DNA of 53,552 nt, from the NCBI GenBank assembly GCA_017998375.1, contig JAGODF010000001.1, positions 1 to 53,552 on the forward strand. The letters run 5' to 3'. The notes beneath the pieces are model-generated. The model worked only from the letters and a program-made list of their open reading frames with translations, did no database searches and was not told the DNA's origin. The position numbers and the translations under genes are program-made. Below, in pieces: positions 7,354 to 27,331 of the stretch (its first letter is position 1; each line of letters opens with the position of its first letter). This DNA is from Spirochaetota bacterium (lineage in GTDB: Bacteria > Spirochaetota > UBA4802 > JAGODF01).

Positions 7354-7399
7354 TGCGCGTCCAAGAGGATTCGAACCTCTGACCCACGGATTCGTAGTC
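7354..7399 (-). repeat. int-distal att repeat = displaced 3' half of tRNA-Arg(ACG)
   Basis: 46 nt match 27216-27261 at 44/46 positions; mismatches at 7364 and 7380. Confidence 0.9.
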
Positions 7400-7878
7400 A
7401 AGAAAGCGAAAAATTTATCTACGTTTCCCGGTGTTTCTCATTGTTTATTACTGTTGATATAATAATGAAGAAAGTCAAGTGAAAAAACAGTGGTCAACGA
7501 TGAGAAACAACGATAGTGTTTTCATTCATCTTACATTTATCTGACACGGACAATTGATTAGTAACCTTGCAGATGAGTAAGGATCGGTCTCCAATATCGA
7601 CTGAGATGCTCCCTAAAGGCTTATGGTGGTGTGTATGAAGACTTAGTGAGGTGTGTGACCCCTTCCCGGTACAGTTTCCTTCCTTTTTAAAATTATTAAA
7701 GATCAACAATGAAGGTGTACCCTGCTATTTTGAGTTCTGTAATTATGAAAAAGATAAATTATGGTAACATTGTTGACAAACAGCAGATTTAACTCCATTA
7801 TCCAGCTATACCAGAAACAAATAGCTTTCCTCTGAGATTATGGTGCATGTTTTAATCAGGATTTAAGAAAACAGATAA

Positions 7879-8658
7879 ATGGCAGGTTCTTCAATGAAAA
7901 GATATATGATTATCCTATTACTTTTCATCATCACGTTCGGTATCAGATATGCATATAGTCAGTCCGGTGAAAATAATAAAGAGGATATAGCAGAAGAAAA
8001 CAGCAATACGGTAAAAGCGATAAATTCCACAGCATGGAAAACTGATTCAGATACAATTCTGTCAATAATAACAAATTTACGAAATTATAAAGAAAGCTCT
8101 GATGATTCAACCCTAAAGACCAAACAAAAACAAAATACTCTGAAGCGGGAATTATTTAAAATAAATAAAGATTATCACAATAAGCCTTTATCATTGAAAG
8201 CAATAATAATTGAAGATGTAACCGCTGAAAAAGATTTATCTGATTATGGGAAAAGAAGAGCAAAAGAAATACTCCGTAAAATAAAAAAAGATCCATCATC
8301 TGCAATGTTTATAGGTGACGGGAATCTTGAAAACAATCCTCTGCTCGTTTTTACATTAGCAATACACCTTGCACTGTGCGAAAAATGCTATAAGGAAACC
8401 GGGCGTTATGAGGTTAAATGCAAAATTCCTGTGCCAGATGAAACTGGTTACTCTCAATTCAGAACAGGAATTAAAGCGGGCAACTCTTTAAGTGATGATA
8501 ATGATAAAATCGACGCTGAAATAATTTTAATCCTGCAATCTGAAAAAAAGGCATTGGATTATTCAAAAGGATCAATCATCCCTATTAGCGGCAAGATAAA
8601 AAGCATTGTTTATAAGGGGTCTCAATTCTTTGAATCAGTTACTATTAGGATTGAATAA
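7879..8658 (+). CDS. Secreted hypothetical protein
   Basis: Signal peptide MKRYMIILLLFIITFGIRYAYSQ (alternative ATG at 7894); no recognisable domain. Confidence 0.5.
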   Translation: MAGSSMKRYMIILLLFIITFGIRYAYSQSGENNKEDIAEENSNTVKAINSTAWKTDSDTILSIITNLRNYKESSDDSTLKTKQKQNTLKRELFKINKDYHNKPLSLKAIIIEDVTAEKDLSDYGKRRAKEILRKIKKDPSSAMFIGDGNLENNPLLVFTLAIHLALCEKCYKETGRYEVKCKIPVPDETGYSQFRTGIKAGNSLSDDNDKIDAEIILILQSEKKALDYSKGSIIPISGKIKSIVYKGSQFFESVTIRIE

Positions 8659-8706
8659 TGTATTGTAATAAATTCATGGCGTTCCTGTAAAGCAACACGA
8701 GCAGAA

Positions 8707-9108
8707 ATGAGTGATAAGTTAAAAACACAAAAAATTATCTGCTTCATTAACGACTATATGAAGTGGGACGACACAATCCATGAACACGCCTGCATTTTCA
8801 ATAATATTTATTCAGTATATCCCAACCTGATGCTTGCATCAAAAACAACATGGAAGAAAATCGATAAGTACGCGAATCTTTTCAATCCTGATAATATAAA
8901 AGCTTCTGAATCAAGCATTGAAAATATCAACCTTGAGGAAGAAATAAAAACAATATCCTGTTTTACAACATCTGATTATTCGATTGAATTTTGCTTTGAT
9001 GAAAAGGTTAAAGAAGATTATTTTATTCTGGTTTTCGATGAAGAACCTATATTTGATGGCGAGCCTGTTGACGATGATACGACAGAAGTATATCGAAGGA
9101 TAGCTTGA
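8707..9108 (+). CDS. Hypothetical protein with strongly acidic C-terminal half
   Basis: ATG start, 48 nt after the upstream gene and 48 nt before the RM gene. C-terminus is DEKVKEDYFILVFDEEPIFDGEPVDDDTTE. Confidence 0.45.
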   Translation: MSDKLKTQKIICFINDYMKWDDTIHEHACIFNNIYSVYPNLMLASKTTWKKIDKYANLFNPDNIKASESSIENINLEEEIKTISCFTTSDYSIEFCFDEKVKEDYFILVFDEEPIFDGEPVDDDTTEVYRRIA

Positions 9109-9156
9109 AATACTTATTATGAGAATCAATAGCTGAGGAAAAGAGTATAAAAAGAA

Positions 9157-11895
9157 ATGAAAAAAGAACTAGTTCAACTAAGAAATTATATTACAAGCCC
9201 AGAATCAGAAAACGCTTCTAACCATCATGTTTATCCATTTTTTCAGCGAGTATTTAGAGAAGATAAATTTAAAAAAGAATCTGAGGCTGCTGGGGCAGAT
9301 ATCTATATTGAGGGCCGTCTTGTTGTTGAGCTGAAAACCTCCGAGAATGATTGGTTAAGCGGATTTTTCCAAGCTTTACATTACAGCAGAAAGGGGTTGA
9401 GCTTTTCCGCAATCTCTGTAATAACAAAGAATTTCATTGGTCTATGGCATGTAGACAACTTACCTGCCGAAGTAAATACAATACTCACCAATTCAGATTC
9501 TAATAAATCTGCCAATGAAATGGGTAGAATAAATGCGAATAAGTGCAGTAAGGCCCTCGAAAAGCAAATATTGACCAGAGCCAATTTTTTATATGAAAGC
9601 GAAGTCAATCTCTTTAATCCCGACCTGGATGTCCAGCTCCTTGAGTTCGAGGACCGTTTAAAAAACCTGGATGTTATCCGCAATCAAATAAATCCCGGTA
9701 ATTTCTTGCGGAAAATCGGCCTTTTAAAGCAATTTTTCACCAATCCCCTGGACGCTATCCATTGTTTTTATACAATCCTCCCCTTTTGGGATGTTACATC
9801 AAAGGTGCCAGATGCTCTTCCATCGAAACCGACCCATCTTCTTCTAACCACAAAGAGCGGGTCAGCAATTAGCGAATCATTCATTATGGAGCCTAAACAC
9901 CATAAGGATTTTAGAAGTTTTGTAGAGAGCCACTATGTTTTTACCAACGATGAAGGCGGGATTTCTATTGATTATTATTTCAGCCGCTTCGACGAAGCTC
10001 TTGCGGAGCACGACCCAGATTATGTAAAGCAGCACGGGATATTCTTTACGGATATCAACTTGAGCAGATTTGCGCTATGGTTTATCAGGGAGAAATTTGG
10101 CGAGAAGAAATTAAGTGATAAATATATAGTAATCGATCCTGCTGGGGGGTCCGGCAATCTTGTAAGTAGCTGGAGAAGGAATCATCTAAAATTCAAAATC
10201 GTATCCGAGCTAAATCCTGATCTCCTTAGAACTATTGAATTGCGACTGAAACATGATCCCGTGCAAATAGAGCAAGGGTATAGCATTATCCCCAGAACAC
10301 ATGAAAATAAGGGTCTAAATTTTATTGATAAACCGGCCGGGGACTACTACTCCATTTTGGAACGGTATTTAAAAGAAGAAGGAAAATCGATAGATAAGCC
10401 TTTCGCTTTCCTACTGAATCCTCCCTATAAAAACACGGATGAAAATGAAACTGTCCGGGATCAAACCGAGGCAAATTACGGTATTGATCCGTCCATCGTT
10501 CAATTAACCGGAAATGATGCCGGAAACGAAAGATACCTGGCGTTCCTTGCTCAAATTCTTGAAATCAGCAAACTGCAAAAAGAGAAACTGCCCGATATTG
10601 AACCGGCTTTAATGATATTTACGCCAACATCCTGGTTGATTCCCCGACCATCATATAAATCATTCCGAGAAAAATTTGATGCTTATTTCAAATTTGAAAA
10701 AGGTTTTATGATCACAGGCCAGGAGTTTTTCAAGGGAACCGGACGATGGCCAGTAGCTTTCACAATATGGAGATACAACCAGCGTAAAAACAACAATAAG
10801 GTGATATTGCTTGATTTGACCGATTTGCCGGGATCAGCTTTTTTAACGGTAAACTGGAACGAAAGCCTTGAAAAAATTAACACCGAGGTTAAAAGGATAA
10901 TCCGTGGTAAAAATGAAGTATTATTTGATGAATCAAGGGAACAAATTAAAGAAACACTACCATTGCTGATAAACACAAAGAACAATGAGGCAGAAAAACA
11001 GCAGATGTATGATTTTAAGCGAAGCCCGACCGATACTGAATTAAAATCAAGATCAATCTTTGGGGGATTACCTCTTAAAGACGTAAGGAGGGCCAACAAA
11101 AAAACCTATGGATCACATAACGGGAATTTCATTGGTTTCATGGATAATGGCACTCCTGTACGGGTAAACCAGGATAAATACAATCGAATGTCCCTGAAGC
11201 CAGATAGAATTTGGTTTCGATTGGATAACGAAATAAAAAGTGTCAACAAATCAAAGTTGTTCAATGGTCCCACGGATAACAGATCGTATTGTGCCTATGA
11301 TTTAGAATCAGCAAAGTCTCTTATTTCATGGTTTTCCATCACAAAAGCAATAAACGGGGTATATCCGGTTTGGGCAAACCAATTCGATATTTGGGCACCC
11401 AGCATACCCACAAAGTACGAGCGCGATTACTATGCTCTTTGCTTTGCATTTGTATTAGCTGAAAATCGCTGCATAGTTACAAAATTTGAAAAGGATAATC
11501 CCGTCGAAGGTGCTCCTGAAATCTTTGTGGATAATCCGTTATGCCCGATCAATTCAGATTCATTTTGGTCAAAAACACTCGATCCAGAGGTTGCCGAACC
11601 ATTGGCAACCAAGCTCGTTGATTCCATCAAATCACTTTACACCTATTGGAATGTCAATTATTGCAGGGGGCAACAAGTGGATTATGCTGGCCTCCAGGAT
11701 GAACCATATTTTAAATATTTTGACTATCCCGATTTTGTGACTCCATATTCGGGATTGATCCAAATTAAAAAGTATGCGGAATTACAAGGAAAAACTGATA
11801 TATCCCAGGTATTTGATACCATCAGGGAGTTGACGAAACAGGTAAAAGAAAGCATCTACAATATGCTTGTGCAAGATTTTAAGTATTTTGAATAA
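9157..11895 (+). CDS. Single-chain Type IIG/IIL-like restriction endonuclease / N6-adenine DNA methyltransferase (MmeI-like architecture)
   Basis: N-terminal D-X9-E-X-K (ADIYIEGRLVVELK) followed by QALHY, as recalled for MmeI (DLFWPGILLIEMK...QALDY). SAM motif I is VIDPAGGSGNLV and motif IV is LLNPPYK. The C-terminal region of about 400 aa could be a target-recognition domain. 912 aa. Confidence 0.6.
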   Translation: MKKELVQLRNYITSPESENASNHHVYPFFQRVFREDKFKKESEAAGADIYIEGRLVVELKTSENDWLSGFFQALHYSRKGLSFSAISVITKNFIGLWHVDNLPAEVNTILTNSDSNKSANEMGRINANKCSKALEKQILTRANFLYESEVNLFNPDLDVQLLEFEDRLKNLDVIRNQINPGNFLRKIGLLKQFFTNPLDAIHCFYTILPFWDVTSKVPDALPSKPTHLLLTTKSGSAISESFIMEPKHHKDFRSFVESHYVFTNDEGGISIDYYFSRFDEALAEHDPDYVKQHGIFFTDINLSRFALWFIREKFGEKKLSDKYIVIDPAGGSGNLVSSWRRNHLKFKIVSELNPDLLRTIELRLKHDPVQIEQGYSIIPRTHENKGLNFIDKPAGDYYSILERYLKEEGKSIDKPFAFLLNPPYKNTDENETVRDQTEANYGIDPSIVQLTGNDAGNERYLAFLAQILEISKLQKEKLPDIEPALMIFTPTSWLIPRPSYKSFREKFDAYFKFEKGFMITGQEFFKGTGRWPVAFTIWRYNQRKNNNKVILLDLTDLPGSAFLTVNWNESLEKINTEVKRIIRGKNEVLFDESREQIKETLPLLINTKNNEAEKQQMYDFKRSPTDTELKSRSIFGGLPLKDVRRANKKTYGSHNGNFIGFMDNGTPVRVNQDKYNRMSLKPDRIWFRLDNEIKSVNKSKLFNGPTDNRSYCAYDLESAKSLISWFSITKAINGVYPVWANQFDIWAPSIPTKYERDYYALCFAFVLAENRCIVTKFEKDNPVEGAPEIFVDNPLCPINSDSFWSKTLDPEVAEPLATKLVDSIKSLYTYWNVNYCRGQQVDYAGLQDEPYFKYFDYPDFVTPYSGLIQIKKYAELQGKTDISQVFDTIRELTKQVKESIYNMLVQDFKYFE

Positions 11896-11959
11896 CTGAA
11901 TGATGTATAATGAGTTTCTGTTTATATTATTTTATTCTCCAACGTCCTGACATTTCTAA

Positions 11960-12790
11960 ATGTTTAGAATTACTATTATACCAATGCCTGTTGAGGAGGA
12001 TTGGATTTTTCTTGCTGGCAGCATTGGAATAATTATAATATTCGAGGTAATAAATTTGTTAAATGCTATGTATAACATTCTCTTCAAGGAATTGTACTAC
12101 TCTTATTGCAATATTATCAAAGATTCCCGATACAGCAAAAAGAAATATTGCCTCATGTATCCTTGTGTCGGAGAATATTATAGGAAATCCAAATTTTTAT
12201 TTGTGGGGCGTGCTGTAAATGGTTGGAATACTCAATTTGTGTGTAATAGAAAAAACTATTCTATTGTAATAAAAAGTATAAAAGCCTCAATGAAAGAAAA
12301 AACAAGATGGATCGAGGACAATGAAAAAGGATTAAATGAGTATTACAATGGTAATAGAAGTAGATTCTTGAAATGTTGTTCTCGGGTATTACATGAAGTC
12401 ACTCAAAAAAATATTATGATGGATTCTCATTGGTCAAAACACATTGCATGGTCAAATCTCATGAAAATCGCCCCTTCAAAAGGCGGCAATCCGACTGACC
12501 GAGAGTGTTATGCTCAACTGGACATTTGCCGCGATCTTTTCAAACTCGAACTTGACCTTCTAAAACCTCGATTTGCATTTATTTTCACTGGTTTGAACTG
12601 GTTCGATAACGGTGACTTTACATTCGTATCGCCATTGGGGATTAAGTTGAAATTCGTCAAAGATAAAGTCGTAAAAGCGATCGGAACTTATAAAAGAACA
12701 CAGCTGATTATTACGGAAAGACCCGATAATCGGAGGGAGGGGTTTACGAATGACATGTTTGTGAAGAGTTTTAAAAAATACATAGTTTAA
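11960..12790 (+). CDS. Divergent uracil-DNA-glycosylase-superfamily (family 4/5-like) protein
   Basis: SNLMKIAPSKGGNPTDRECYAQLDICRDLFKLELDLLKPRFAFIFTGL parallels the UDG-family pattern N.VKCRPP.NR.P...E...C...L..E+.L+.P+++..LG. Motif A is replaced by FVGRAVNGW and motif B by ITERPDNR. The start is uncertain (ATGs at 11960, 11984 and 12068). Confidence 0.45.
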   Translation: MFRITIIPMPVEEDWIFLAGSIGIIIIFEVINLLNAMYNILFKELYYSYCNIIKDSRYSKKKYCLMYPCVGEYYRKSKFLFVGRAVNGWNTQFVCNRKNYSIVIKSIKASMKEKTRWIEDNEKGLNEYYNGNRSRFLKCCSRVLHEVTQKNIMMDSHWSKHIAWSNLMKIAPSKGGNPTDRECYAQLDICRDLFKLELDLLKPRFAFIFTGLNWFDNGDFTFVSPLGIKLKFVKDKVVKAIGTYKRTQLIITERPDNRREGFTNDMFVKSFKKYIV

Positions 12791-12902
12791 TATATAAAAA
12801 CATCGAAAGAAACCTTATGGGTAAGATATTAGCATAGCGTTACAAATATTATTCCGATATGAATAGTAGCTTAATGGAGCGTATTTGTGCTTTGTTTTAA
12901 TG

Positions 12903-12953
12903 TTGACGTGGAATAAAGACGTGGTATTTATCAAATTCTTGAAATCTTTCAAG
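12903..12953 (+). promoter_or_regulatory. Candidate promoter/operator of the PanA-toxin operon
   Basis: TTGACG (12903-12908)-N16-TATTTA (12925-12930). Direct GACGTGG repeats at 12905 and 12918. Perfect palindrome CTTGAAATCTTTCAAG at 12938-12953. Confidence 0.3.
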
Positions 12954-13012
12954 TATTTGATTACTTTCCTATTGGGTACAAAAAGATTTTAATACGGTTG
13001 ATATAATAAAAC

Positions 13013-13561
13013 ATGAACACCATTAACCTTCATACCCTTTTGCTAAATATATTAAAATCTGTTAAAGAATACAGAGATGGTATTCTCATCACACGACTTA
13101 TAAAAATGGCATACCTTGTTGAGGTACTCTACTATCGTAAATTTCATCAAAGATTGACAGACGCCCAATGGGTCTATTATAAGTACGGTCCATATATAAT
13201 GGATATTGATACCCACCTTAGTGATAGAAATATCATAGCAGAAGAAATCGAAGATAAAGAACTCACAAAGTTCATGGTAAAGGATTATGCTGAAATTGAT
13301 GAGGTGCCAGCCGAAGTTCAGACAATCATCTCATCAATTATAAGGAAATACCATGATGTTGAGCTGAGTGACTTATTGGATTATGTATATTATGAAACAG
13401 AACCAATGATGAATGCAGATCAAAGAGGAGAGGTTCTTGATTTCTTAAAAATATTACCAAGCGAATATTATAAAGTAAAAAAACTTGAGTGTTCTGATGA
13501 TGTCATCAAAGATATTAAACTAAAGTATAAAGAAAAAATAAAAAATGCCAAGCACTTATAA
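13013..13561 (+). CDS. Panacea-domain (SocA-like, DUF4065) putative antitoxin
   Basis: ITRLIKMAYLVEVLYYRKFHQRLTDAQWVYYKYGPYIMDI fits the Panacea signature (KL.KL.Y......G.P.....+.A...GP). It overlaps the downstream gene by 17 nt. Confidence 0.6.
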   Translation: MNTINLHTLLLNILKSVKEYRDGILITRLIKMAYLVEVLYYRKFHQRLTDAQWVYYKYGPYIMDIDTHLSDRNIIAEEIEDKELTKFMVKDYAEIDEVPAEVQTIISSIIRKYHDVELSDLLDYVYYETEPMMNADQRGEVLDFLKILPSEYYKVKKLECSDDVIKDIKLKYKEKIKNAKHL

Positions 13562-14333
13562 GGGTATCCCCGATTTATACGATACGGTTTGTGGGGAATT
13601 CGATTCGAGCTTCTACGATTGGATATTACCACCGGAATCAAGTACATTGCAGGTGGGTCAGTTGTGTAATGCCCCGGTATGGTATGAGAGAAAAAAACGC
13701 TGGTATCTTACAGAAGAACATTATTATCCCACAAGGGAGGAGGAATCCACCTGGAGAGCAAATATATATTCGGGAAAAAGTAAAGTAGAAAGAGAACCTC
13801 AGCATATTGTTGCAAAATATTTTGAACTGGAAAAAGGTGAAAATCTTTTTGCTTCTCCCGGAAAGTACCGACCTGTAATCCTTATAAGAAAATATCAAAA
13901 TGATTGGCTTAACCCAGCTAATACATCTGAGCATATAGCTACTTGGTTATGCCTTCCATTGTTTTCATATAAAGACAGACACAACCAACCATTTGTACTG
14001 AATGACATGGCTTTTAAAAGCCCTGAAAGAGTATATATCCCTCCAAGTTATAAAGATAAACCCGGTGGTATCATTGAAAGTTCAGCGCAATTTCTTTCAA
14101 TCCAAATGATTAAGGAAGAATACTTAGAGCCTTTGACGTCAATGAGTGGAATTCGACCGCCTAAAATGCAAAGACCATTTAGAGTGAGCAATTTCGCTCT
14201 TAAAATCATCATGTTCCATTTCCTCAAACATTTCAATCTGTTTGATGTTTTATTGGACAGTTGTGATACTGATGGGAAAACTGCTTATACTTTATTTGTG
14301 GAAGAAGTAAATGAGATTCTTTCAAAGTGCTGA
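13545..14333 (+). CDS. Putative toxin partner of PanA; long, insertion-bearing PemK/MazF-like protein
   Basis: Ordered MazF-like elements: VGQLCNAPVW, then GKYRPVILIRKY, then WLCLPLFSYK, then ESSAQFLSIQMIKEEYLEP. There is an insert of about 55 aa and a helical C-terminal extension. Translationally coupled to PanA. Confidence 0.35.
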   Translation: MPSTYKGIPDLYDTVCGEFDSSFYDWILPPESSTLQVGQLCNAPVWYERKKRWYLTEEHYYPTREEESTWRANIYSGKSKVEREPQHIVAKYFELEKGENLFASPGKYRPVILIRKYQNDWLNPANTSEHIATWLCLPLFSYKDRHNQPFVLNDMAFKSPERVYIPPSYKDKPGGIIESSAQFLSIQMIKEEYLEPLTSMSGIRPPKMQRPFRVSNFALKIIMFHFLKHFNLFDVLLDSCDTDGKTAYTLFVEEVNEILSKC

Positions 14334-14351
14334 AAACTCTGGAGTTGATTA

Positions 14352-14546
14352 ATGACAAAAATTGTATGTGAAGGGTGTGGAGCTGTTTATGAGATTGAAG
14401 AACATCACATTATAATGCGCGATAAAGATTCGATTGAATGTCACCATTGTAACACTACTTTAATTTCATGGAATGGTGGTCATTGGTATACGGATAAAGA
14501 AATTTCTGGACCAACTAAAAACTTCATAAAAAAGGAAAACCTTTAA
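14352..14546 (+). CDS. Small zinc-ribbon protein
   Basis: CEGC...CHHC pairs; GGAG RBS; starts 18 nt after the putative toxin gene. Confidence 0.5.
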   Translation: MTKIVCEGCGAVYEIEEHHIIMRDKDSIECHHCNTTLISWNGGHWYTDKEISGPTKNFIKKENL

Positions 14547-14914
14547 ACTTATTATTGATTTTCTTCTATTTGATTCCTTAAATCTATTAATACGCTGTCG
14601 TCACCAACGGCGATGAATGGCCTAACCGGCACTGTACGACCAAAACTATCAATCATTATGTTTGCAATCAAAAAGATTAGGGCGAATAATTTAATATTTT
14701 TGCTCAGGTCGATAATTATTCCATGAAACTCCTCGAATGCCACCAATGCCAGCACAGAGTAACCCTCACCGACCAGGGGGGGTATTTGTGATTATTATGA
14801 TGATAAGCGTCACCGACTGGCATTTGAAACGGTTGACAAGACTAGGGAAGTGATTCCATGCCCGAGGGAGGAGATGATTGTCAGGCAATAATATTATTAT
14901 ATGGTTAGATTCTC

Positions 14915-15157
14915 TTACTTTTCGATATCAAGAAGATTGCGAGGATGAAGATTCAAGGAATTTGCAATTTTAACTAATGTTTTCATCGTGAAATTGACTT
15001 CACCATATTCTATTCGTTGAAAATATTTGTAATCTACACCATTGACTTCAGCCAACTTTTCCTGGGTTAAACCTGCCTTTTCCCTTTCAGCTTTAATTAT
15101 TCGTCCTACCTGGAGCAGAAAATCAGAAGCATTATATTGATTCCCTCTTTGTTTCAT
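14915..15157 (-). CDS. XRE-family helix-turn-helix regulator
   Basis: AGLTQEKLAEVNGVDYKYFQRIEYGEVNFTMKTLVKIANSL. The canonical ATG is at 15157; the track ORF starts at a TTG at 15163. Confidence 0.8.
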   Translation of the reverse strand: MKQRGNQYNASDFLLQVGRIIKAEREKAGLTQEKLAEVNGVDYKYFQRIEYGEVNFTMKTLVKIANSLNLHPRNLLDIEK

Positions 15158-15189
15158 TAGCAAATACTATCAAAATGTAATTGCATTAA

Positions 15190-15211
15190 ACACCGTACTA
15201 TAATACGGTGT
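15190..15211. promoter_or_regulatory. 22-bp palindromic operator candidate centred on a TATAAT box
   Basis: ACACCGTA-CTATAA-TACGGTGT lies in the divergent region between the XRE gene and the 15253 gene. Confidence 0.45.
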
Positions 15212-15252
15212 AGCGAATTATTGATATTCTTGAAATTAGATTAGGTGTTGGT

Positions 15253-16707
15253 ATGAAAACTGATATCGAAGAATGTCTAAAAATATTGCCAAGACTATTA
15301 GACTTCGCCAATTTGCCAGATGCGTATATCTCTATGATACTTAATGAGATTAGTCAGGCTTATAACGATAATTTAACAGATATAAAATTAACAAGCAATC
15401 TATACTGGCTATTCCATACTCCCAAAGAAGGTGATAGAGTTGTCAAAGGTAAGAAGGGAGGTGGTATTTATGGAACAGTATTTAAAGATGATGATGGACA
15501 ACTAAGTATAAATCTTGATGAGCCGTTAAAAACATCGAAGGAAAAAATATTTAAATTAAGGGGAGGGTACAATAAGATTGTTGAGGATGCTCTACTATTA
15601 AACTGGAATTATATTTCTTCAAATTCCTTACAGTATATTTATAATAACATGAAGCTGGCTGAATATGAAGAATTATCAAGAAGTAAACCGGTATATTTCG
15701 TTTATCATGGTAACTCGCCATGTAAATGGTGCAAAAAACACAAAGGCACTATTGTACGTTTGCTCCCTCGTGAGATTATTGAAAATGATATTGATGAACT
15801 TTCACATTATGGAATAGATGATATTCATGCAAAAACGGTAATCTGGTTTAATAAAAATAATATTAACCATTCTAAATTAAGAGTATGTGCCTTCCCACAT
15901 ACCGAGGAAGAGCATACATGCGGTATTGATCTCTTACCAATCAATCTTGAAGCTATTGAAGAAGTTCATGAAAAAAAGAAAGGGAACTTCGATTTTTCAA
16001 CAAAGATACGAAACCTTCTTAAAAAGAAAAGATTTAAGTTTGGATCAGGTGAACCGATGACACCTGAACAGTGGGAAATATTCGATAAAAGCATAGATGC
16101 ACGATGGAAGAAAGAGGTTGAAAGGATCACCGGTGTTACTGCAACGAAGGGAGACAGACCTCAATTTGAAACAAGGAAAAAGCCTTATCGAAATAATAAT
16201 ACAAAAGAATGGTATAACCCAGAAACAGGGCAGGTAGAAAAAACACAAATAAAACGAAAGTTCATTCCTCAAGAAATTGATTATTCATATCAGAGTAAGG
16301 AAGAAAAAGAATATCGAAAACCGACATTTATTGAAAGCGACAAGGTGAGATACAATAATAATATTTACGAGCGTGTTGCACCAGGAGATTACGAAAAGAG
16401 AAAAGCGGTATGGGATCGGGATCGAACATTACCGATTCCAGTTTCAACAGACAGCACCAGGTATGAAAAAATATTTGGTGCGACGAAAAATAAAAAAAAG
16501 GAGAAAGACAATCGGAAGCCAACGTTTATAGGAGAAAATCTTGTTAGATTCAATAATAATATTTATGAAGCTGTTCCCGCAAGTGAATATAATCGGAAGT
16601 TGGAAGAATGGAGAAAAGACCCAACAAAACCAGCTCCAGTAAATGAATCCGGGCCTGGGTATAAAAGAATTTTCGAAGAGGCAGGTAAAAATAGGAACAA
16701 GGAGTAA
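15253..16707 (+). CDS. Hypothetical protein, possibly phage MuF/SPP1-gp7-like head-morphogenesis domain plus C-terminal tandem repeats
   Basis: SPCKWCKKHKGTIV and FPHTEEEHTCG loosely resemble the MuF pattern D.R.C..C..L.G ... PP.HPNCRC. Two copies of a unit of about 66 aa: RKPTFIESDKVRYNNNIYERV... and RKPTFIGENLVRFNNNIYEAV... Confidence 0.3.
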   Translation: MKTDIEECLKILPRLLDFANLPDAYISMILNEISQAYNDNLTDIKLTSNLYWLFHTPKEGDRVVKGKKGGGIYGTVFKDDDGQLSINLDEPLKTSKEKIFKLRGGYNKIVEDALLLNWNYISSNSLQYIYNNMKLAEYEELSRSKPVYFVYHGNSPCKWCKKHKGTIVRLLPREIIENDIDELSHYGIDDIHAKTVIWFNKNNINHSKLRVCAFPHTEEEHTCGIDLLPINLEAIEEVHEKKKGNFDFSTKIRNLLKKKRFKFGSGEPMTPEQWEIFDKSIDARWKKEVERITGVTATKGDRPQFETRKKPYRNNNTKEWYNPETGQVEKTQIKRKFIPQEIDYSYQSKEEKEYRKPTFIESDKVRYNNNIYERVAPGDYEKRKAVWDRDRTLPIPVSTDSTRYEKIFGATKNKKKEKDNRKPTFIGENLVRFNNNIYEAVPASEYNRKLEEWRKDPTKPAPVNESGPGYKRIFEEAGKNRNKE

Positions 16708-16743
16708 TACATGGTAATTAAAAATTCAGTCATGGAGTAGATT

Positions 16744-17286
16744 ATGAAAAAATATTTAATTGTAATTTCGCTAATATTTTCAATTTCTTTATCCGTAAAT
16801 GTGCATTCAGCGGGAGTGCCAGATATAGGGTACAGAGAATTCAAATTAGGAATGCAAAGAATTGTCGCCGAAAAAATTGTTAGGGACAAATACCTCAATG
16901 AATACGCAGTAAATTTCAATGCTGTTGCTAAAAAAGATAAAAACATAATTGAAATTAAAGATAAGAACATTCAAAATAAATATATATTTTTGTATTTCAA
17001 CGAAAAAAATAATTTATATGACATAATTGTTTGGGCCGCTTACATGGATAATATAAAATATACTGTTTTAGTAAATCAGTTAGTTGATAAATATAAAACA
17101 CCATATTCAAAAAGATTAGACACAGGTGGGTATTATCATCTTGGATGGGTGTGGGATAATAAAAAGTATATAATCCAATGCTTCTATGAAGCAGACATCG
17201 AAACAGTTTTCATAACCTATTCGAATAATTATTTGAAAGAAAAATATCACAAGTATCTTTATGGAGATGGATTAGAGGATTTTTAA
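16744..17286 (+). CDS. Secreted hypothetical protein
   Basis: Signal peptide MKKYLIVISLIFSISLSVNVHSA; no recognisable domain. Confidence 0.5.
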   Translation: MKKYLIVISLIFSISLSVNVHSAGVPDIGYREFKLGMQRIVAEKIVRDKYLNEYAVNFNAVAKKDKNIIEIKDKNIQNKYIFLYFNEKNNLYDIIVWAAYMDNIKYTVLVNQLVDKYKTPYSKRLDTGGYYHLGWVWDNKKYIIQCFYEADIETVFITYSNNYLKEKYHKYLYGDGLEDF

Positions 17287-17365
17287 TTTTCAATATCAAT
17301 TCATCGTCTGTTTATTAGTGTAGAAATGGTTAATGCCAGTTTATTGAAATAATGTAGAATAACTA

Positions 17366-17965
17366 TTATGGAATTCGTTGTTCATCTTCATCTAATAGCT
17401 CCTGTGGATCACGGGCCGGAACAACCGTGATTGTTTCAGTATGCCCTACATCTTCCTGGACCATCCCGAGGATTTTAACGAGCAATGCCAGGGCCGCGAT
17501 CTTGTCATACATTACAACAGAAAAAGATTCTGAGCCGCTAACACTGGTTTTGTGCCTCAAGGATTTAACAGCCCTGGTATCAACTTCTGATAGATTGTGA
17601 AGGTTTATATTGCCGTTTGAGAAATTAATAATATCAAAAATATCGCTAAAAGCAATGGCTTGAATTTCAGCCAGAGTTCGACCGCATAATGCTTCACGCG
17701 AGGCCCAGAGTGTATCGAGGCGCTCTTGGATGGCTCCGGAAATGTTGCTTTTTGTTAACAGTCGTGCTGCGGCGGCTCTTGCAGCATTTGCTTTTGCCAA
17801 TGGGTATGCAGCTCTGTAGCTTGCCGATCCGTTCATCGTTCTTATATATTCTAAAACGAAAACACGCTGTCGGTCGTTTAATGAATCCCATGCGGATATT
17901 TCAACCTGATGCCCTGGTTTTGTTTTCTTCCTTGATGCCTTAATGATTTCAGTATTATCGTTCAT
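17366..17965 (-). CDS. terS: Phage terminase small subunit (Terminase_2 / P27-like)
   Basis: LNDRQRVFVLEYIRTMNGSASYRAAYPLAKANAARAAAARLLTKSNISGAI fits the pattern LT.KQ..F..EY....N...A...AGYS.......A..LL....V...I. Confidence 0.65.
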   Translation of the reverse strand: MNDNTEIIKASRKKTKPGHQVEISAWDSLNDRQRVFVLEYIRTMNGSASYRAAYPLAKANAARAAAARLLTKSNISGAIQERLDTLWASREALCGRTLAEIQAIAFSDIFDIINFSNGNINLHNLSEVDTRAVKSLRHKTSVSGSESFSVVMYDKIAALALLVKILGMVQEDVGHTETITVVPARDPQELLDEDEQRIP

Positions 17966-18179
17966 TTTTCTTTTTACTCTTTCGTTTGGCTTGGCATTCC
18001 GGACAGTATGGCCAGCAGCGATAAATTACCCAACCGCCGCGATCAGGCGAAATAAAATCGCTATAGTATATCCAGTTAAAGCAATTTCTACACCAGACCC
18101 ATGGACGGGATTGATCATCTGGTATTTTAAATTTCAACTTGTACCTTCCTTGCCCGCACCACTCAATAAATATGGGCAA
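17955..18179 (-). CDS. Small Cys-rich (zinc-ribbon-like) protein
   Basis: CRNC...CPEC; TTG start only; overlaps terS by 11 nt. Confidence 0.35.
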   Translation of the reverse strand: MPIFIEWCGQGRYKLKFKIPDDQSRPWVWCRNCFNWIYYSDFISPDRGGWVIYRCWPYCPECQAKRKSKKKNER

Positions 18180-18189
18180 ATGCTATATA

Positions 18190-18465
18190 TTAAGCCTGCT
18201 GCATTTCCCAATCGAGATAAAAGCATGATCGTAATATATCTTCAGTCACTTCACGCCAATATGATGCTTTTTGAGCAATCATCTCTTCTTTGGTTAATCC
18301 AGGTGAACAATCCCCCTTTGCCTTTTCCCATTCATCATCATGATTAGCATTAATTATCTCATTGACACCTTCATCCAAATATTTTTTTATTTTAGATTCT
18401 TGTTCTATTTTATACTTTTCCAATTTGAGGTTTTTCGAAAATTCACTTGTTTGTTGATTACTCAT
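18190..18465 (-). CDS. Hypothetical protein
   Basis: Strong RBS AAGGAGATAAAA before the ATG at 18465; 91 aa, charged. Confidence 0.5.
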   Translation of the reverse strand: MSNQQTSEFSKNLKLEKYKIEQESKIKKYLDEGVNEIINANHDDEWEKAKGDCSPGLTKEEMIAQKASYWREVTEDILRSCFYLDWEMQQA

Positions 18466-18551
18466 TTTTATCTCCTTGAATTATAATGTAATTCCATTCC
18501 ATGCATTAGTACTGCCAAAAAAGACATGTAGAACAATCTATATTTGCACTT

Positions 18552-18660
18552 GAAACTGCAAACAGCGCAAACACAACAAACGAAAACAATATAAATTAAA
18601 GTAAAGTGTTTGCGTTATTGGTATTGTTTGTGTTGTTTGCATCGTTTGTGTTGTTGGTGT
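18552..18660. other. Candidate replication origin: inverted arrays of 9-bp-phased CAAAC/GTTTG iterons flanking an AT-rich core
   Basis: CAAAC at 18559, 18568 and 18577. GTTTG at 18608, 18626, 18635 and 18644, with degenerate copies at 18617 and 18653. AT-rich spacer 18586-18607. The region straddles the stop codon of the primase-helicase gene. Confidence 0.45.
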
Positions 18661-20503
18661 TTTTTGTAGATACCGCCTGATATTCTCCTCGTGATGATCT
18701 GATAATTTGACCGGCTTCGCACATTTTCATTAGCAAGAATCTGGTTGTACTTTGATTTTTGTTAAGAACTTGTGCGATGTCCTTCGGTTTCATCGACCCA
18801 TTTGCGGCCCGTAGTGTGTCGATTATTTCTTGACGTGCTTTACTGTCAGCAATCTCTGTTGCGTCTCCCACTATCTCCCAGCGGCATGTTGGAGTGTCAA
18901 ACCTGACAGCAAGTTCGCGCTCCTCAATATCGCGTCCCGTTATCGATAGCACAGCGTCACCTTGTCCTCGCTTGCGTGCCAATATTAAAACAGTATCGGC
19001 TACACCTGTTATTCCAATTGATCCCACAGCGGCATGAATGAAATCTGTAACTTCTGCTTTCTTAGCATGGTGAACAACAATTATTGCAATTCCATATTCA
19101 TCCGCGAATGCCTTTATCGGAGTAAGTGCTGCTGTCGTTTGCGAGTAGTCATTATTGTCTTTGACAGTGGTAAAGCGTGCAAGGGTATCGATAATTATAA
19201 CTGTGGTGTCAGGGTGTTCATCCATCCACTTGTGTAGCCAGATAAATCCTTTTCCGTCTGGAGCCCAATTTGTCATGATGTGGCAATTATCGGATGGAAC
19301 CGCAGACTGTTTTTTTAATCTATTTTTAATACGTCGTGGCGTGTCCTCAAGGAATAGAGAAAGGGTGCGTCCCAATGGTATCGGAATACTACCTAAGATG
19401 GTTCCCCCCATGGACATGGTAATGGCTATATCGAGACCAAACCATGATTTACCAATTTTTGGCGTACCCGCTAGGACTGTGAGTCCTTGGGGTATGATGC
19501 CAGGTATGATGTAAATGGGTTCTGGGAAATCTGTAGTGATGAGTTCTGCTGCAGTCCAAACCTTAAAGTTGGGTTCAGTATTTTTGGTTTTCATTCTTGG
19601 GCATGTCTTTATATATTCCACCAAGTCTAATCCTTCAGACTGTGCATCTGCGATATCCCATCCCTTTGGCTTTCCGGTGATTTGGAGGACCTCTGCGTGA
19701 GGAAGTTTTGCTTTAATGTCCTCGGCTGCTTGAAACCCCGCCAGATCGTTGTCCGGCCATATAATGGTCTTGTGTCCTCGTAATGGTTTCCAGTCAGTTT
19801 TATTAACTGCCTGAGAACCCCCAATCCATGTCACGGTAATATATCCCGGTACTTGGACCTCAGCGCACTTCTCTCCCTCAACGATGATGATTGGAAGGGT
19901 GCTCACAGTAAATTTGTCGATATTATATAACGGTCTATTGTTTTTTTTAGGATTGCCTGCAGTCCATTTGCCAGCCGTAGTGAAGTAATATGGAACAATA
20001 TTTTTTTTCCCATCTTTTTCGTGGCGAATAACTACTACCCATGATCTTTTATTGAAACGATAGTTCCAAACGGCGATGGCTTTGCCGAATTTTTCGACAA
20101 TGAATTTATTTGTTAGATGGATTTCAAGGTCATTTAATCTTTCATCGGGATTATACTCGGCTGGTATATGAAGAGTAGAATTATTTTGTTTCACGGGTGT
20201 TGAGTGAAATGTATCTGATGTAAGATGGCCAGCTGCCTCAACGATGATATTGGCTGCCTCGATCTTTGAAATTCCCTGGAATTTTTCAAGCAGGGTGATC
20301 ATATCGCCTTGGTCGTTGGAGGAAAAATCATTGTACAATCCAGATTCTGATATGCTAAACGAACCTGGATTTTTATCGTTGCGAAGAGGATTCTGAATCC
20401 AATATTCTCCGTGCTTCCATTCCCCACCAGGGAAAAGTCGTGAAATAATAGAGGGTGATATGGACTGGCGAGCCTGATCGAAGATGTCAGGATGAGTATT
20501 CAT
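18596..20503 (-). CDS. Bifunctional primase-helicase (Toprim domain + RecA-like/AAA_25 ATPase + C-terminal wHTH)
   Basis: Toprim IIIVEGEKCAE...IWPDNDLAGFQAAE. Walker A LAGTPKIGKS; Walker B VIIIDTLARF. ATG at 20503 after AAAGGGG. N/T-rich low-complexity tail. Confidence 0.75.
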   Translation of the reverse strand: MNTHPDIFDQARQSISPSIISRLFPGGEWKHGEYWIQNPLRNDKNPGSFSISESGLYNDFSSNDQGDMITLLEKFQGISKIEAANIIVEAAGHLTSDTFHSTPVKQNNSTLHIPAEYNPDERLNDLEIHLTNKFIVEKFGKAIAVWNYRFNKRSWVVVIRHEKDGKKNIVPYYFTTAGKWTAGNPKKNNRPLYNIDKFTVSTLPIIIVEGEKCAEVQVPGYITVTWIGGSQAVNKTDWKPLRGHKTIIWPDNDLAGFQAAEDIKAKLPHAEVLQITGKPKGWDIADAQSEGLDLVEYIKTCPRMKTKNTEPNFKVWTAAELITTDFPEPIYIIPGIIPQGLTVLAGTPKIGKSWFGLDIAITMSMGGTILGSIPIPLGRTLSLFLEDTPRRIKNRLKKQSAVPSDNCHIMTNWAPDGKGFIWLHKWMDEHPDTTVIIIDTLARFTTVKDNNDYSQTTAALTPIKAFADEYGIAIIVVHHAKKAEVTDFIHAAVGSIGITGVADTVLILARKRGQGDAVLSITGRDIEERELAVRFDTPTCRWEIVGDATEIADSKARQEIIDTLRAANGSMKPKDIAQVLNKNQSTTRFLLMKMCEAGQIIRSSRGEYQAVSTKNTNNTNDANNTNNTNNANTLL

Positions 20504-20545
20504 ACACACACCCCTTTTGCGACATCAATATAAGGTTTGATGAGT

Positions 20546-20728
20546 TCATTTCTTACCTCCGCAGTCCGAAGGTAAAAAGCTAATTTCGCGGGTTATAGTG
20601 TATCGAGCAAAACGGCCCCCGTGTCGAATTATCTCTAATTTTATTGAACCATGGGAAACTCCTGCGATTTCTTTTTCAAACTGGGATATTATTTCTTGAG
20701 GAATAAAATTTTTTTTGGTGGGTTCCAT
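20546..20728 (-). CDS. Small protein, YezD/DUF2292-like
   Basis: GVSHGSIKLEIIRHGGRFARYTITRE resembles the YGSV.L.+.+G+V pattern. The ATG overlaps the upstream stop (TAATG). Confidence 0.35.
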   Translation of the reverse strand: MEPTKKNFIPQEIISQFEKEIAGVSHGSIKLEIIRHGGRFARYTITREISFLPSDCGGKK

Positions 20729-20949
20729 TATTTTCCCTCCACAGCAATTGAATGCTCTTGCAAAAATGAATTTATTTCATCAAGATCATACCTGACCGAT
20801 CTCCCAATTTTATAATGAGGAATTTTTTTTTGTGATGTCCACAGCCTGACAGTTTGATTGGAGATGTTCAGATAATTGGCGAGTTGTTTCCCGTTAATTT
20901 TTTTTTGAAGCCAGAAACAATCACGAGGGTTTTCTTCTGGGGTTTTCAT
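20728..20949 (-). CDS. AlpA/excisionase-family HTH protein
   Basis: LANYLNISNQTVRLWTSQKKIPHYKIGRSVRYDLDEINSFL (HTH_17-type). ATG at 20949 after AGGAAGG. Confidence 0.7.
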   Translation of the reverse strand: MKTPEENPRDCFWLQKKINGKQLANYLNISNQTVRLWTSQKKIPHYKIGRSVRYDLDEINSFLQEHSIAVEGK

Positions 20950-21403
20950 AGCCGACACCTTCCTGCATTTTATCAGAAAATGTGCGCGGGCTATTTGGTG
21001 CCGAATTGCGCGAAGCTCACTGAAAAATGAAATATCGTGAACTTTATATAAACACCTTAATAGATAGCTGATCTTTTGTCAACAATTAAATATTCCATTA
21101 AACATAGTCATAACAAGATAAATTTTGAATATATGTATATCAGGCGATTTTAAAATGAGGCAAGTAATCGGACAAAAGAGTTAGTTATGTCATGTATGAG
21201 CTAATGATAATAGAAAAAGCAATAATATATTAAACAAGTCGGAATTCCCTATTCTAGGAAGAACTTTTTGCAAACATGATTATTTTGAGAGAAAACAATT
21301 ACAGTGAGAGGGTTACATTTAAATAATTGAAAACTTAGAATACTTGACAAAAATAATAAAATTGTAAAATATGTATTAATCAAAACAACATCAATAATTT
21401 AGC

Positions 21404-21856
21404 ATGTTGATAAAAAAAGCAAAAGCGAATCTTGACATCGCGCGATATTGTGCAGGTTGTTCAGATGTTAGCTATTATTCAGTTGGTGCGTCAAGAGCTT
21501 ATTACTCAATTTTTCAATCAGCAAAGTCGATATTGCAAAATGGATCATTCGATTATTTTTCTTTTCTGAACACAATACCAAAGAGAAAGGAATATGATCA
21601 TGATAATCATAAGCCTTATTCTCATGGTACAATATCTTCTGCTTTATGCACTTATATTTCCAAACGTCCCAAATATATCGAAGAAACTCATAAATATTTA
21701 CAATTTCAAATAAATGCGACTTTTAGCGCACTTTATAGTTTGCGAGTTCAAGCCGATTATGAGGGTAAGGACATCGAAATAAGTATTCTTAACGACGCTA
21801 TAAAGAAAGCCGAAAAACTAATATCTGATCTAAAATTATTTATTGGATTTAATTAG
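21404..21856 (+). CDS. HEPN-domain-like protein (putative toxin of a TAC-like operon)
   Basis: AKANLDIARYC...SRAYYSIFQSAKSIL, YSHGTISSAL and LYSLRVQADYEGKD match the classical HEPN helix pattern (A..dL..A...YyA.f.a.kAlL...sH.g...lR..adY). Confidence 0.5.
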   Translation: MLIKKAKANLDIARYCAGCSDVSYYSVGASRAYYSIFQSAKSILQNGSFDYFSFLNTIPKRKEYDHDNHKPYSHGTISSALCTYISKRPKYIEETHKYLQFQINATFSALYSLRVQADYEGKDIEISILNDAIKKAEKLISDLKLFIGFN

Positions 21857-22349
21857 CATGGATTACGAAATAGCAAATATAATTAGAGACCATATTTATG
21901 AGTATAAATACAGATTCGGATTTTTACCTGTAAAACTATCTATAATAAATAATGAGATATTTGTTCTTATAAATTCACTCGAAGTATTAGATAATAATGA
22001 ATACCAAGAGATGATTTATAATTTTAATACTGAATATTTCAAGAGAGGTTATGTTAATATTTATTGGGGTATAGATGATTTCATTGATGACGATTTTAGT
22101 CAATTGTATGAATATAGTAATTTCATCATTCCTATGATCAAAACATCATCAGCAAATATTTTAAATGAATTTGATCTAACAAAGAATCTTGATAATTATT
22201 TAAATATATTTGATAATTGCCAAAACGATATCGAAACTACGGGAAAAATAACAACGTATTTGGATTATAATAAAGATAAGCAACCAATAAAAGAGAATGT
22301 AATAAAAAACAAATTTGTTCCTAATGTAAATTTTACACTAGCGGCATAA
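21843..22349 (+). CDS. Acidic hypothetical protein (putative antitoxin of a TAC-like operon)
   Basis: Overlaps the HEPN gene by 14 nt (an alternative ATG at 21858 starts 2 nt after the HEPN stop, leaving a 1-nt gap). D/E/N-rich; no MNT GS..D.D motif; ends 2 nt before the SecB-like gene. Confidence 0.45.
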   Translation: MDLISMDYEIANIIRDHIYEYKYRFGFLPVKLSIINNEIFVLINSLEVLDNNEYQEMIYNFNTEYFKRGYVNIYWGIDDFIDDDFSQLYEYSNFIIPMIKTSSANILNEFDLTKNLDNYLNIFDNCQNDIETTGKITTYLDYNKDKQPIKENVIKNKFVPNVNFTLAA

Positions 22350-22351
22350 AT

Positions 22352-22825
22352 ATGAATAACCAGATACTTTTAAATTTTGAAAAAATTTACTATCCTGAAA
22401 TTCGTCTTTCGTATAATCCGAAGTATAAAAATAATTATGATATGTTTACAGATGTAAGGGAAATTGAGTGTAAAATATCTATTGCTGGGAATGTTAATAT
22501 TATTAACGATAATAAATTGATTTGTATTGTAAACTGCAATGTTATGTGTAACCATAAGGACTTTGCAGATTTTTCGAGATTAAATATTATTTCACATGGG
22601 ATATTTGCTACCCCAGATAAATTTTCCATTGAAACAGTTCAAGAGTATCATCAGAATTTTTATGCTATAGTATACCCATTTATTCGAGAGACGGCTCATA
22701 GTGTATTTATGAAAAATAGAATAAGCTTTATTATGCCAATAATAAACTTTCTTCAAACAATTAAAGACAATCCTTCTAATTTTAAAATTATGCAAACAAA
22801 TAACAATGGAGATGATAAAGCCTAA
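22352..22825 (+). CDS. SecB-like chaperone
   Basis: LNFEKIYYPEIRLSYNP aligns with E. coli SecB FQIQRIYTKDISFEAPN. SHGIFAT...FYAIVYPFIRETAHSVFMKNRISFIMPIINF aligns with GGIFSI...[32 protein letters not shown]. Confidence 0.7.
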   Translation: MNNQILLNFEKIYYPEIRLSYNPKYKNNYDMFTDVREIECKISIAGNVNIINDNKLICIVNCNVMCNHKDFADFSRLNIISHGIFATPDKFSIETVQEYHQNFYAIVYPFIRETAHSVFMKNRISFIMPIINFLQTIKDNPSNFKIMQTNNNGDDKA

Positions 22826-22871
22826 TTTCGTTGATAAAGCTAAAACTGAGAAAATTTGACTTGGAATCAAC

Positions 22872-23456: not shown

Positions 23457-23489
23457 TAAAATAAACCCTCCCTCATTGATGTTATAAAG

Positions 23490-24224: not shown

Positions 24225-24289
24225 GTTAAATAATCGACAGTTAATATTATGCTAACTGTTGTAAAAAATATCAAGGTATAATATTCAGA

Positions 24290-25914: not shown

Positions 25915-25915
25915 A

Positions 25916-27112: not shown

Positions 27113-27215
27113 TCTCCTCGCAAGATAACGTCATCTGACATTTATCTCACTTTTTAAGATAATGAGAAACGCCGGTTTTCCGGTAGTCTCTGATGCCTGA
27201 ACTATTCAGGACTTA

Positions 27216-27261
27216 TGCGCGTCCAGGAGGATTCGAACCTCCGACCCACGGATTCGTAGTC
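27216..27261 (-). repeat. int-proximal att repeat (element-derived 3' half now completing tRNA-Arg)
   Basis: Matches 7354-7399 at 44/46 positions. Confidence 0.9.
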
Positions 27262-27291: not shown

Positions 27292-27331
27292 GTGTTGCTT
27301 CTATGTGATGCGGCGGTGCGACGCCGCGGTG

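Follow-up and report, generated by a model that had tools for sequence, protein, structure and literature searches.

A predicted Panacea toxin-antitoxin module with an enlarged MazF-like toxin on a tRNA-integrated island of a Spirochaetota genome

The window analysed in this study is the whole 53,552-nucleotide (nt) stretch, positions 1 to 53,552 and thus the full length of contig JAGODF010000001.1, from a metagenome-assembled genome (MAG) of a Spirochaetota bacterium. Within it lie two overlapping genes, panA and panT, which encode a Panacea-domain protein and a candidate toxin, respectively, followed by a small zinc-ribbon gene. An earlier reading of the sequence alone (the original prediction) had proposed that these genes make up a toxin-antitoxin operon whose toxin is an unusually long relative of MazF and PemK. 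The genes of the module and the upstream features considered here are as follows.

13013 to 13561, forward strand: panA, predicted stand-alone Panacea (DUF4065) antitoxin gene, 182 amino acids (aa)
13545 to 14333, forward strand: panT, candidate MazF-fold toxin gene, 262 aa, overlapping panA by 17 nt
14352 to 14546, forward strand: gene for an MJ0042-type zinc-ribbon protein, 64 aa, beginning after an 18-nt gap downstream of panT and carrying its own GGAG ribosome-binding site
12930 to 12961, no strand assigned: 32-bp palindrome with 15-nt arms (12930 to 12944 and 12947 to 12961) and a 2-nt spacer, 52 nt upstream of panA
12999 to 13007, forward strand: TGATATAAT, an extended −10-like element read from the sequence, ending 5 nt before the panA ATG

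All three open reading frames (ORFs) are read in the sequence with the lengths, overlap and gap originally described, the panT ATG lying 17 nt before the panA stop codon. In the MAG annotation, the first is a DUF4065 protein and the other two are hypothetical proteins. Two starts have been annotated for panT, a TTG at 13662 in one gene call, giving 223 aa, and the start of the 262-aa protein MBP7582397.1. As residues 1 to 39 are conserved in homologues, including K6, Y12, F23, W26 and G38, the 262-aa form starting with the ATG at 13545 is taken as the correct one. No Shine-Dalgarno sequence was found in front of panA or panT.

The assignment of the 182-aa protein to the Panacea/DUF4065 family was borne out by the Pfam profile PF13274 (SocA_Panacea), which recovers residues 29 to 128 with an E-value of 3.2e-10 and 41.3 bits, above the gathering score of 25.7. 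The Pfam scan revealed no second domain besides Panacea. PanA does not belong to the narrower SocA equivalog of NCBIfam, against which it scored 14.7 bits with a cut-off of 190. The PanA partners encoded upstream of the related toxins described below, ten in all, match PF13274 and nothing else. Two of the toxins, both distant (about 20% identity to PanT; loci L013, 4260 to 5681, and L015, 1829 to 3215), are paired with longer PanA proteins of 243 and 236 aa, which have an additional C-terminal region of about 55 aa.

To model PanT, an alignment of 88 family members was used. An AlphaFold2 (AF2) model built from 11 sequences had been poor (predicted local distance difference test, pLDDT, 56), and the 88-sequence alignment remedied this, giving a pLDDT of 94.3 and a predicted template modelling score (pTM) of 0.90. 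When this model was compared with the Protein Data Bank (PDB) by Foldseek, the top five matches were MazF-mt1, Staphylococcus aureus MazF (twice), a MazF-mt1 mutant and Bacillus subtilis MazF, with probabilities of 0.99 to 1.00, target-normalised template modelling scores (TM-scores) of 0.54 to 0.58 and E-values of 4e-3 to 2e-2. Below these, the probability fell to 0.66 for a Mycobacterium tuberculosis toxin (5cca), to 0.20 for CcdB and to 0.11 or less for the rest. Among the viral models in BFVD, the sole high-probability match (0.96) was a MazF-sized phage protein of 122 aa named "Endoribonuclease".

Profile-profile comparison pointed in the same direction. A MazF/Kid template alignment was assembled from four sequences, each verified to be identical to a PDB chain, and hhalign aligned the 88-member family to it with 81 to 85% probability and an E-value of about 1e-5, while controls with reversed sequences gave 0.1% and about 0.5. 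The probabilities obtained for PanT against MazF/Kid (81 to 91%) lie under the usual 95% level, and they are likely to be underestimates because the template profile holds four sequences. A database search seeded with the same four-sequence MazF alignment returned near-identical NdoA proteins only. No Pfam family other than PemK_toxin (PF02452) was matched by two or more relatives; two of the 88 matched it, both weakly (best E-value 0.024). The MazF/PemK character originally proposed for the 262-aa protein thus holds, with structural and profile-profile methods being the only ones that detect it. Instead of a fold unrelated to PemK and CcdB, both Foldseek and hhalign found the SH3-like barrel of the MazF/CcdB superfamily, and the modelled core of PanT is a MazF-like SH3-type barrel.

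Two other readings of the protein were tried and rejected. Matches of PanT to SV40 T-antigen among PDB sequences (E-values of about 0.2 to 0.5) were dismissed as noise. In addition, a comparison of the N-terminal with the C-terminal half of PanT by hhalign gave a probability of 0.1%; as the halves show no mutual similarity, PanT is not a tandem MazF duplication (a pseudo-dimer).

Canonical MazF is a single-domain protein of about 110 to 120 aa that forms homodimers. Its β1-β2 loop is flexible; it closes over the active site, contacts both RNA and the antitoxin MazE, and is displaced by MazE. The catalytic residues of MazF are an arginine (R25 in the B. subtilis protein, R29 in that of E. coli) and a threonine (T48 and T52, respectively). 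Against this background, PanT can be divided into the following segments.

13656 to 13685, forward strand: probable β1 equivalent, residues 38 to 47 (GQLCNAPVWY), aligning with EndoA G6DVYFADL once the insert is spliced out
13686 to 13859, forward strand: family-wide insert, residues 48 to 105, at the position of the MazF β1-β2 loop, with strands at 52 to 59 and 69 to 75 in the AF2 model
13860 to 14237, forward strand: MazF-like core, residues 106 to 231, containing GK107xR109PV, LCLP138xFS141 and E178S179...Q187
14238 to 14330, forward strand: C-terminal helical extension, residues 232 to 262, with AF2 helices at 234 to 239 and 243 to 261

In the hhalign alignment, residues 106 to 231 of PanT lie opposite residues 22 to 112 of EndoA. 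The segment GK107YR109PVILI pairs with GGVR25PVLVI, placing R109 opposite the catalytic R25; TWLCLP138LFS141 pairs with TAIVAAIT48A, and E178S179 with D72S73. R109 is the only invariant column among the 88 sequences (88/88). The other conserved columns are K107 and P138 (87 each), G38 (84), E99 (82), and Q187 and S/T141 (77 each). K107, E99, H146, Q148 and Q187 are conserved within the family and not seen in MazF. The hallmarks by which the protein had originally been recognized stand in part: the K.RPV motif and the order of the core strands were confirmed, but the residues then read as a "Q+.S+" motif (Q182 and S185) are not conserved, while Q187 is. Similarly, a helical tail is present, but its length had been put at about 65 aa, an overestimate because the first of its helices (residues 216 to 229) aligns with MazF's own C-terminal helix. 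The real C-terminal extension is about 31 aa in PanT (family median 30 aa), and the N-terminal extension is about 37 aa.

The original prediction also held that an insert of about 55 aa splits the MazF-like region, and this proved to be a property of the whole family. The segment is 58 aa long in PanT and 51 to 62 aa in all 88 relatives (about 56 aa family-wide); since it lies between β1 and the RPV strand in every one of them, we regard it as a defining family feature. When residues 51 to 103 were spliced out, the hhalign probability rose to 90.7% (E-value 1.2e-6), and the alignment reached further towards the N-terminus, setting G38QLCNA opposite G6DVYFA. Of the 88 relatives, 84 have G38 and 72 have Y47, and the identification of residues 38 to 47 as the MazF β1 equivalent is moderately supported by these comparisons. 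A core split by an insert is therefore modestly favoured over an N-terminal domain followed by a contiguous core. Overall, several additions are built onto the predicted PanT core: about 37 aa at the N-terminus, a β-rich insert of about 58 aa that takes the place of the β1-β2 loop, a number of small inserts close to the active site, and C-terminal helices spanning about 31 aa.

Several results weigh against a MazF-like interpretation. PanT matches no Pfam family at an E-value of 1 or below, PemK_toxin (PF02452) included, so that it is not a member of that family by its profile, and no NCBIfam, PHROGs or PADLOC model matches it either. Profile searches against PDB sequences did not recover MazF. 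The Foldseek E-values given above are modest, and about half of PanT is covered by these matches. The choice between an insert and an N-terminal domain rests on a gain of 3 bits in hhalign. Finally, the MazF catalytic threonine (T48) falls opposite F/Y140, the conserved S/T141 being one position off; because of this register, the second catalytic residue of PanT is not clearly conserved.

The toxin family is rare. Twelve members were found among 5.8 billion proteins searched, and 122 representative clusters among 1.84 billion (about 120 clusters at 50% identity). Fragments aside, the proteins are 211 to 317 aa long, with a median of 240. Every sampled member comes from a metagenome or MAG, none from a named isolate, and they are annotated as hypothetical at best; among 20 distant clusters sampled, none carried a RefSeq or nr name. 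A protein search with the 88-sequence alignment returned 14 proteins, through which two distant genomic contexts were reached, and a scan of GTDB genomes returned two MAG loci only. Nothing was found when the locus was searched at the DNA level, when phage and plasmid collections were queried with the toxin by tblastn, or when IMG/VR viral contigs were scanned.

In all ten contexts that could be assessed (the window included), the gene immediately 5′ of the toxin gene encodes a homologous protein with Panacea as its only recognized domain; two of these contexts hold toxins only about 20% identical to PanT. Among the closer loci, seven (again counting the window) have clear starts for both genes, and in these the genes overlap by 8 to 20 nt; in the two distant loci, L013 and L015, gaps of 7 to 9 nt separate them. 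Locus L008 was left out of the overlap count because of the ambiguous start of its toxin gene. PanA identity (27 to 52%) tracks toxin identity (20 to 63%). The Panacea gene preceding the toxin gene in 10/10 contexts indicates a dedicated pair. The neighbours of the relatives include type I restriction-modification genes, an IS1595 transposase gene, DndE-like and AAA_15 genes, Mrr, phage Rep_O and RadC genes, and ParAB. All ten show the arrangement that Kurata et al. used as their FlaGs criterion, a conserved toxin-antitoxin-like gene pair in neighbourhoods that are otherwise unrelated. From these comparisons, panA and panT are inherited together and co-diverge across unrelated contexts, many of them in defence or mobile-element neighbourhoods.

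Three of the related sequences deserve separate mention. One of the distant pairs resides on a 4.3-Mb circular metagenomic genome, beside an Mrr-like restriction gene. At L008 (3001 to 3741, from a Syntrophaceae MAG), the listed toxin ORF starts at 3100 and encodes 213 aa, whereas in-frame tblastn similarity begins at 3001; the gene could be a pseudogene, its sequence could contain an error, or a non-canonical start could be in use. A 170-aa protein from a 649-bp contig (P0006) is 87% identical to PanT over its first 100 or so residues and unrelated thereafter. As it looks frameshifted or chimeric, it was excluded from the alignments.

The region upstream of panA had been credited with a sigma70-like promoter, direct GACGTGG repeats and a 16-bp palindrome plausibly serving as an autoregulatory operator. 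The promoter was not listed by a consensus scan, and no acceptable −10 element accompanies the TTGACG at 12903; the region holds 15 promoter-like sites, close to the 9.5 ± 3.2 expected from shuffled sequences. The scan, which requires a −35 element, does not list TGATATAAT either, although this element, together with the absent Shine-Dalgarno sequence, suggests that the panA transcript may be leaderless or nearly so. The GACGTGG repeat is present but at chance level, a comparable repeat occurring in 34% of shuffles. The palindrome, in contrast, is real and longer than first noted: its arms are complementary at 14 of 15 positions, a level reached by one of 2000 dinucleotide shuffles, and it may be a protein-binding site. 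A reading as RNA structure was rejected (fold z = −0.53). The operator role did not fare as well. No comparable inverted repeat was found upstream of the homologous panA genes, and as PanA also lacks a DNA-binding domain, autoregulation by PanA is unsupported. Ernits et al. 2023 (PMC10440598) likewise argue that Panacea itself is unlikely to act as the transcriptional autoregulator.

The 64-aa protein encoded downstream of panT has a CxxC...CxxC arrangement and matches NCBIfam TIGR02098 (MJ0042_CXXC) with 22.7 bits (cut-off 20.9), while its match to Pfam Zn_ribbon_4 is below cut-off. Searches by tblastn found no homologue of it in any related locus, and in all nine other contexts the gene 3′ of panT is a different one or sits on the opposite strand. 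The suggestion that the zinc-ribbon gene is part of the system was therefore abandoned: as it is absent from every other locus, it is better regarded as a local neighbour than as a component of the module.

The module is carried by an integrative island whose base composition (about 35% GC) differs from that of the surrounding genome (about 64% GC). A 35-bp direct repeat of the 3′ part of the tRNA gene, with one mismatch, marks the attachment (att) sites at 7365 to 7399 and 27227 to 27261. The island and its backbone genes are listed below.

7365 to 27261, no strand assigned: integrative island carrying the module, about 19.9 kb, seen in the GC profile and inserted in the tRNA-Arg(ACG) gene (27217 to 27291)
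25916 to 27112, reverse strand: tyrosine integrase
25141 to 25914, reverse strand: ParA
24290 to 25144, reverse strand: ParB
18596 to 20509, reverse strand: AAA_25 primase/helicase-like protein, with weak matches to a CHC2 zinc finger and a winged helix-turn-helix domain
17366 to 17965, reverse strand: small terminase subunit

No phage structural genes other than the terminase subunit were seen on the backbone, and the layout resembles that of a phage satellite, or of a phage-inducible chromosomal island (PICI), with accessory cargo. In the island, Rfam detected nothing but tRNAs; three tRNA genes, for Arg(ACG), Ser(GCT) and Ser(TGA), are located at its right junction (27217 to 28050, reverse strand).

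Other cargo genes were observed around the module. Just upstream, a 912-aa ORF (9157 to 11895, forward strand) contains an NPPY(K) motif and gave a weak match, far under the cut-off, to the Alw26I/Eco31I/Esp3I adenine methyltransferases (E-value 4e-4), with nothing from Pfam or PADLOC; it may encode an unclassified type IIG-like restriction-modification or defence protein. Between it and panA lies a 276-aa ORF (11960 to 12790, forward strand) with a sub-threshold match to the uracil-DNA glycosylase superfamily (E-value 9e-4, 19.7 versus 24.3 bits). Downstream of the module, an 82-aa HTH_3 protein (14915 to 15163, reverse strand) resembles restriction-modification controller (C) proteins (PADLOC Control_protein, E-value 1e-10), and this helix-turn-helix protein is a candidate for binding the palindrome at 12930 to 12961. 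Divergent from its gene, a 484-aa lysine-rich ORF (15253 to 16707, forward strand) with no family match contains the repeat ...RKPTFI..VR(Y/F)NNNIYE.... At 21404 to 22349 (forward strand), the gene for a 150-aa HEPN-domain protein (E-value 4e-5) is overlapped by a 168-aa ORF without a family match, and the two may constitute a second toxin-antitoxin or defence pair on the island.

MazF-like toxins paired with Panacea antitoxins have been described before, and the original view that no such pairing was on record, so that this could be a new class of PanAT toxin, has to be withdrawn. Kurata et al. 2022 (PMC8832971) listed PemK among the CDD domains of PanA partners and reported at least four clusters of MazF-like PanTs, of which two have been validated. 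By HHpred, EndoA/PemK/MazF-like PanTs occur in their clusters T5 (at 99.5% to EndoA), T6 and T25, and the T8 toxin is labelled MazF in the supplementary information (SI) table. The pairs from Pseudomonas moraviensis (T6) and Bifidobacterium ruminantium (T25) were validated as toxin-antitoxin systems, with toxins that inhibit translation, whereas the MazF-like T8 candidate from Flavobacterium xanthum was non-toxic in E. coli (PMC8832971). MazF/PemK is also among the commonest folds in the PanA network of Ernits et al. 2023 (PMC10440598). These authors found that the stand-alone Panacea domain neutralises toxins directly and proposed a sensory role for Panacea.

The present family shares with the MazF-like PanAT systems the order of antitoxin before toxin and the small gene overlaps, and complex-based neutralisation has been shown for PanAs. 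The PanTs of T5 and T6, like the one studied here, have no CDD domain match and are MazF-like only by HHpred or structure prediction; T25 differs in that CDD PemK_toxin matches occur among its members, and T8 in having the "MazF" label only. What distinguishes the present family from T5, T6, T8 and T25 is its length of 211 to 317 aa, the insert of about 56 aa and the N- and C-terminal extensions. The MazF signal is also weaker here than in T5 (81 to 91% by hhalign as against 99.5% by HHpred). Overlap with T5, T6 or T8 is unlikely, and the family is probably absent from the RefSeq-based PanAT catalogue because all sampled members are metagenomic or from MAGs. Large PanTs neutralised by a stand-alone Panacea are known from toxFtsL(D9):PanA, whose toxin has 281 aa (PMC10440598). 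An identity of PanT with toxFtsL(D9) was considered and rejected, toxFtsL being a membrane-anchored protein of GAF and FtsL-like domains and not of the MazF fold.

With the canonical MazF/PemK/Kid/EndoA toxins (PF02452), PanT shares the SH3-like barrel, the GxRPV strand with the catalytic arginine, the hydrophobic "xxxPxxS/T" strand and, in the same order, the strand preceding the C-terminal helix and that helix. Unlike them, it is more than twice the size, has a 58-aa β-rich insert in place of the β1-β2 loop, is not detected by the Pfam model and has Panacea as its partner rather than a MazE/PemI-type antitoxin. The gyrase poison CcdB belongs to the same fold superfamily but is a weak Foldseek match (probability 0.20) and lacks a counterpart of the invariant Arg-Pro motif. 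The founding Panacea system, SocA-SocB, likewise consists of a Panacea antitoxin and a toxin. SocA is a ClpXP adaptor (type VI).

Taken together, the gene order, the fold and the linkage make it probable (we estimate about 0.7) that panA and panT form a type II PanAT module in which PanA neutralises a toxin with a MazF-like core. For the narrower prediction that PanT is an endoribonuclease, we find the odds slightly better than even. In this scheme, the module would be cargo of the tRNA-Arg-integrated mobile island of the Spirochaetota MAG. Free PanT would cleave RNA in a sequence-specific, ribosome-independent manner, like MazF, and arrest translation, while PanA would neutralise it by direct binding, by analogy with other stand-alone PanAs. 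Translational coupling through the gene overlap would keep the balance of antitoxin to toxin, and loss of the island or phage infection could release the toxin, leading to growth arrest or abortive infection. In MazF, the loop whose place the insert takes lies over the active site and touches RNA as well as MazE; the insert therefore probably sets the choice of substrate, the binding of PanA or both.

How PanT acts, if it is a toxin, can be viewed in other ways. More tentatively, the family may be a distinct branch of the MazF/CcdB fold tied to Panacea, in which replacement of the loop and a remodelled active site (the invariant K107-x-R109, the conserved H146, Q148 and Q187, and an aromatic side chain where MazF has its threonine) could have produced a new substrate or chemistry, with structured RNA (tRNA or rRNA) or non-RNA molecules as conceivable targets; we consider this less likely than not. 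In such a branch, the insert might also be the surface by which a stand-alone Panacea senses and gates its toxin. The aromatic F/Y140 and the family's own conserved residues (K107, E99, H146, Q148 and Q187) can also be cited in favour of a genuine PanA-toxin pair whose toxin is not an RNase at all and has another target, such as DNA gyrase, as for CcdB, a protein of the same fold that is also among the Foldseek matches, or a target bound by the insert. With the good model, however, CcdB reached a probability of 0.20 and a TM-score of 0.38, against 1.00 and 0.57 for MazF, the invariant R109 lies in the GxRPV motif that is catalytic in MazF, and the validated MazF-like PanTs inhibit translation, all of which make a non-RNase toxin improbable. 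It is still less probable that PanT has degenerated into a non-toxic protein of the MazF fold that serves only in structure or binding, in a pair with some other function. The uncertain second catalytic residue would fit such a protein, as would the precedent of MazF-like PanT candidates without toxicity in E. coli (F. xanthum T8 being one), but R109, K107 and P138 are kept in relatives with only about 20% identity and the linkage to PanA is strict, which speaks for an active site under constraint and a protein that has to be neutralised.

The remaining alternatives concern the composition and purpose of the type II PanAT module rather than the toxin. That the zinc-ribbon protein is a third component, acting as a regulator, sensor or chaperone, would be consistent with the position of its gene, which follows panT on the same strand after 18 nt, with no terminator between the two and a GGAG site of its own, and accessory third genes do occur in a minority of PanAT loci (Kurata et al., PMC8832971). 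However, with no zinc-ribbon homologue in related loci, and a different or oppositely oriented gene downstream in the nine others, a tripartite system is the least credible of the possibilities considered here. A phage-sensing defence system, rather than an addiction module, would have Panacea as the sensor and the MazF-like protein as the effector, activated without dissociation of the complex. The location of the module in the cargo region of a satellite-like island, the restriction-modification, Dnd-like and Mrr genes beside its relatives, and the sensory role of Panacea proposed by Ernits et al. 2023 (PMC10440598) speak for such a system. We nevertheless regard it as a minority view, as no PADLOC model matches the toxin, and it overlaps the PanA-neutralised toxin model more than it excludes it.

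The concept of a PanA paired with a MazF-like toxin having been published, the advance made here is incremental. What is new is a toxin family that has an enlarged architecture, is covered by no existing model, is linked exclusively to PanA and occurs in uncultivated organisms only. Its architecture is distinctive and testable, even though the pairing concept is known. The family also marks a gap in annotation, since its members are all hypothetical proteins and neither Pfam, NCBIfam, PHROGs nor PADLOC has a model for it. Work on PanA treats it as a "hyperpromiscuous" antitoxin, and this family offers a defined system in which to test how a Panacea domain standing alone recognizes unrelated toxins. 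It could show both how Panacea grips the MazF fold and how the specificity of MazF can be rebuilt by insertion.

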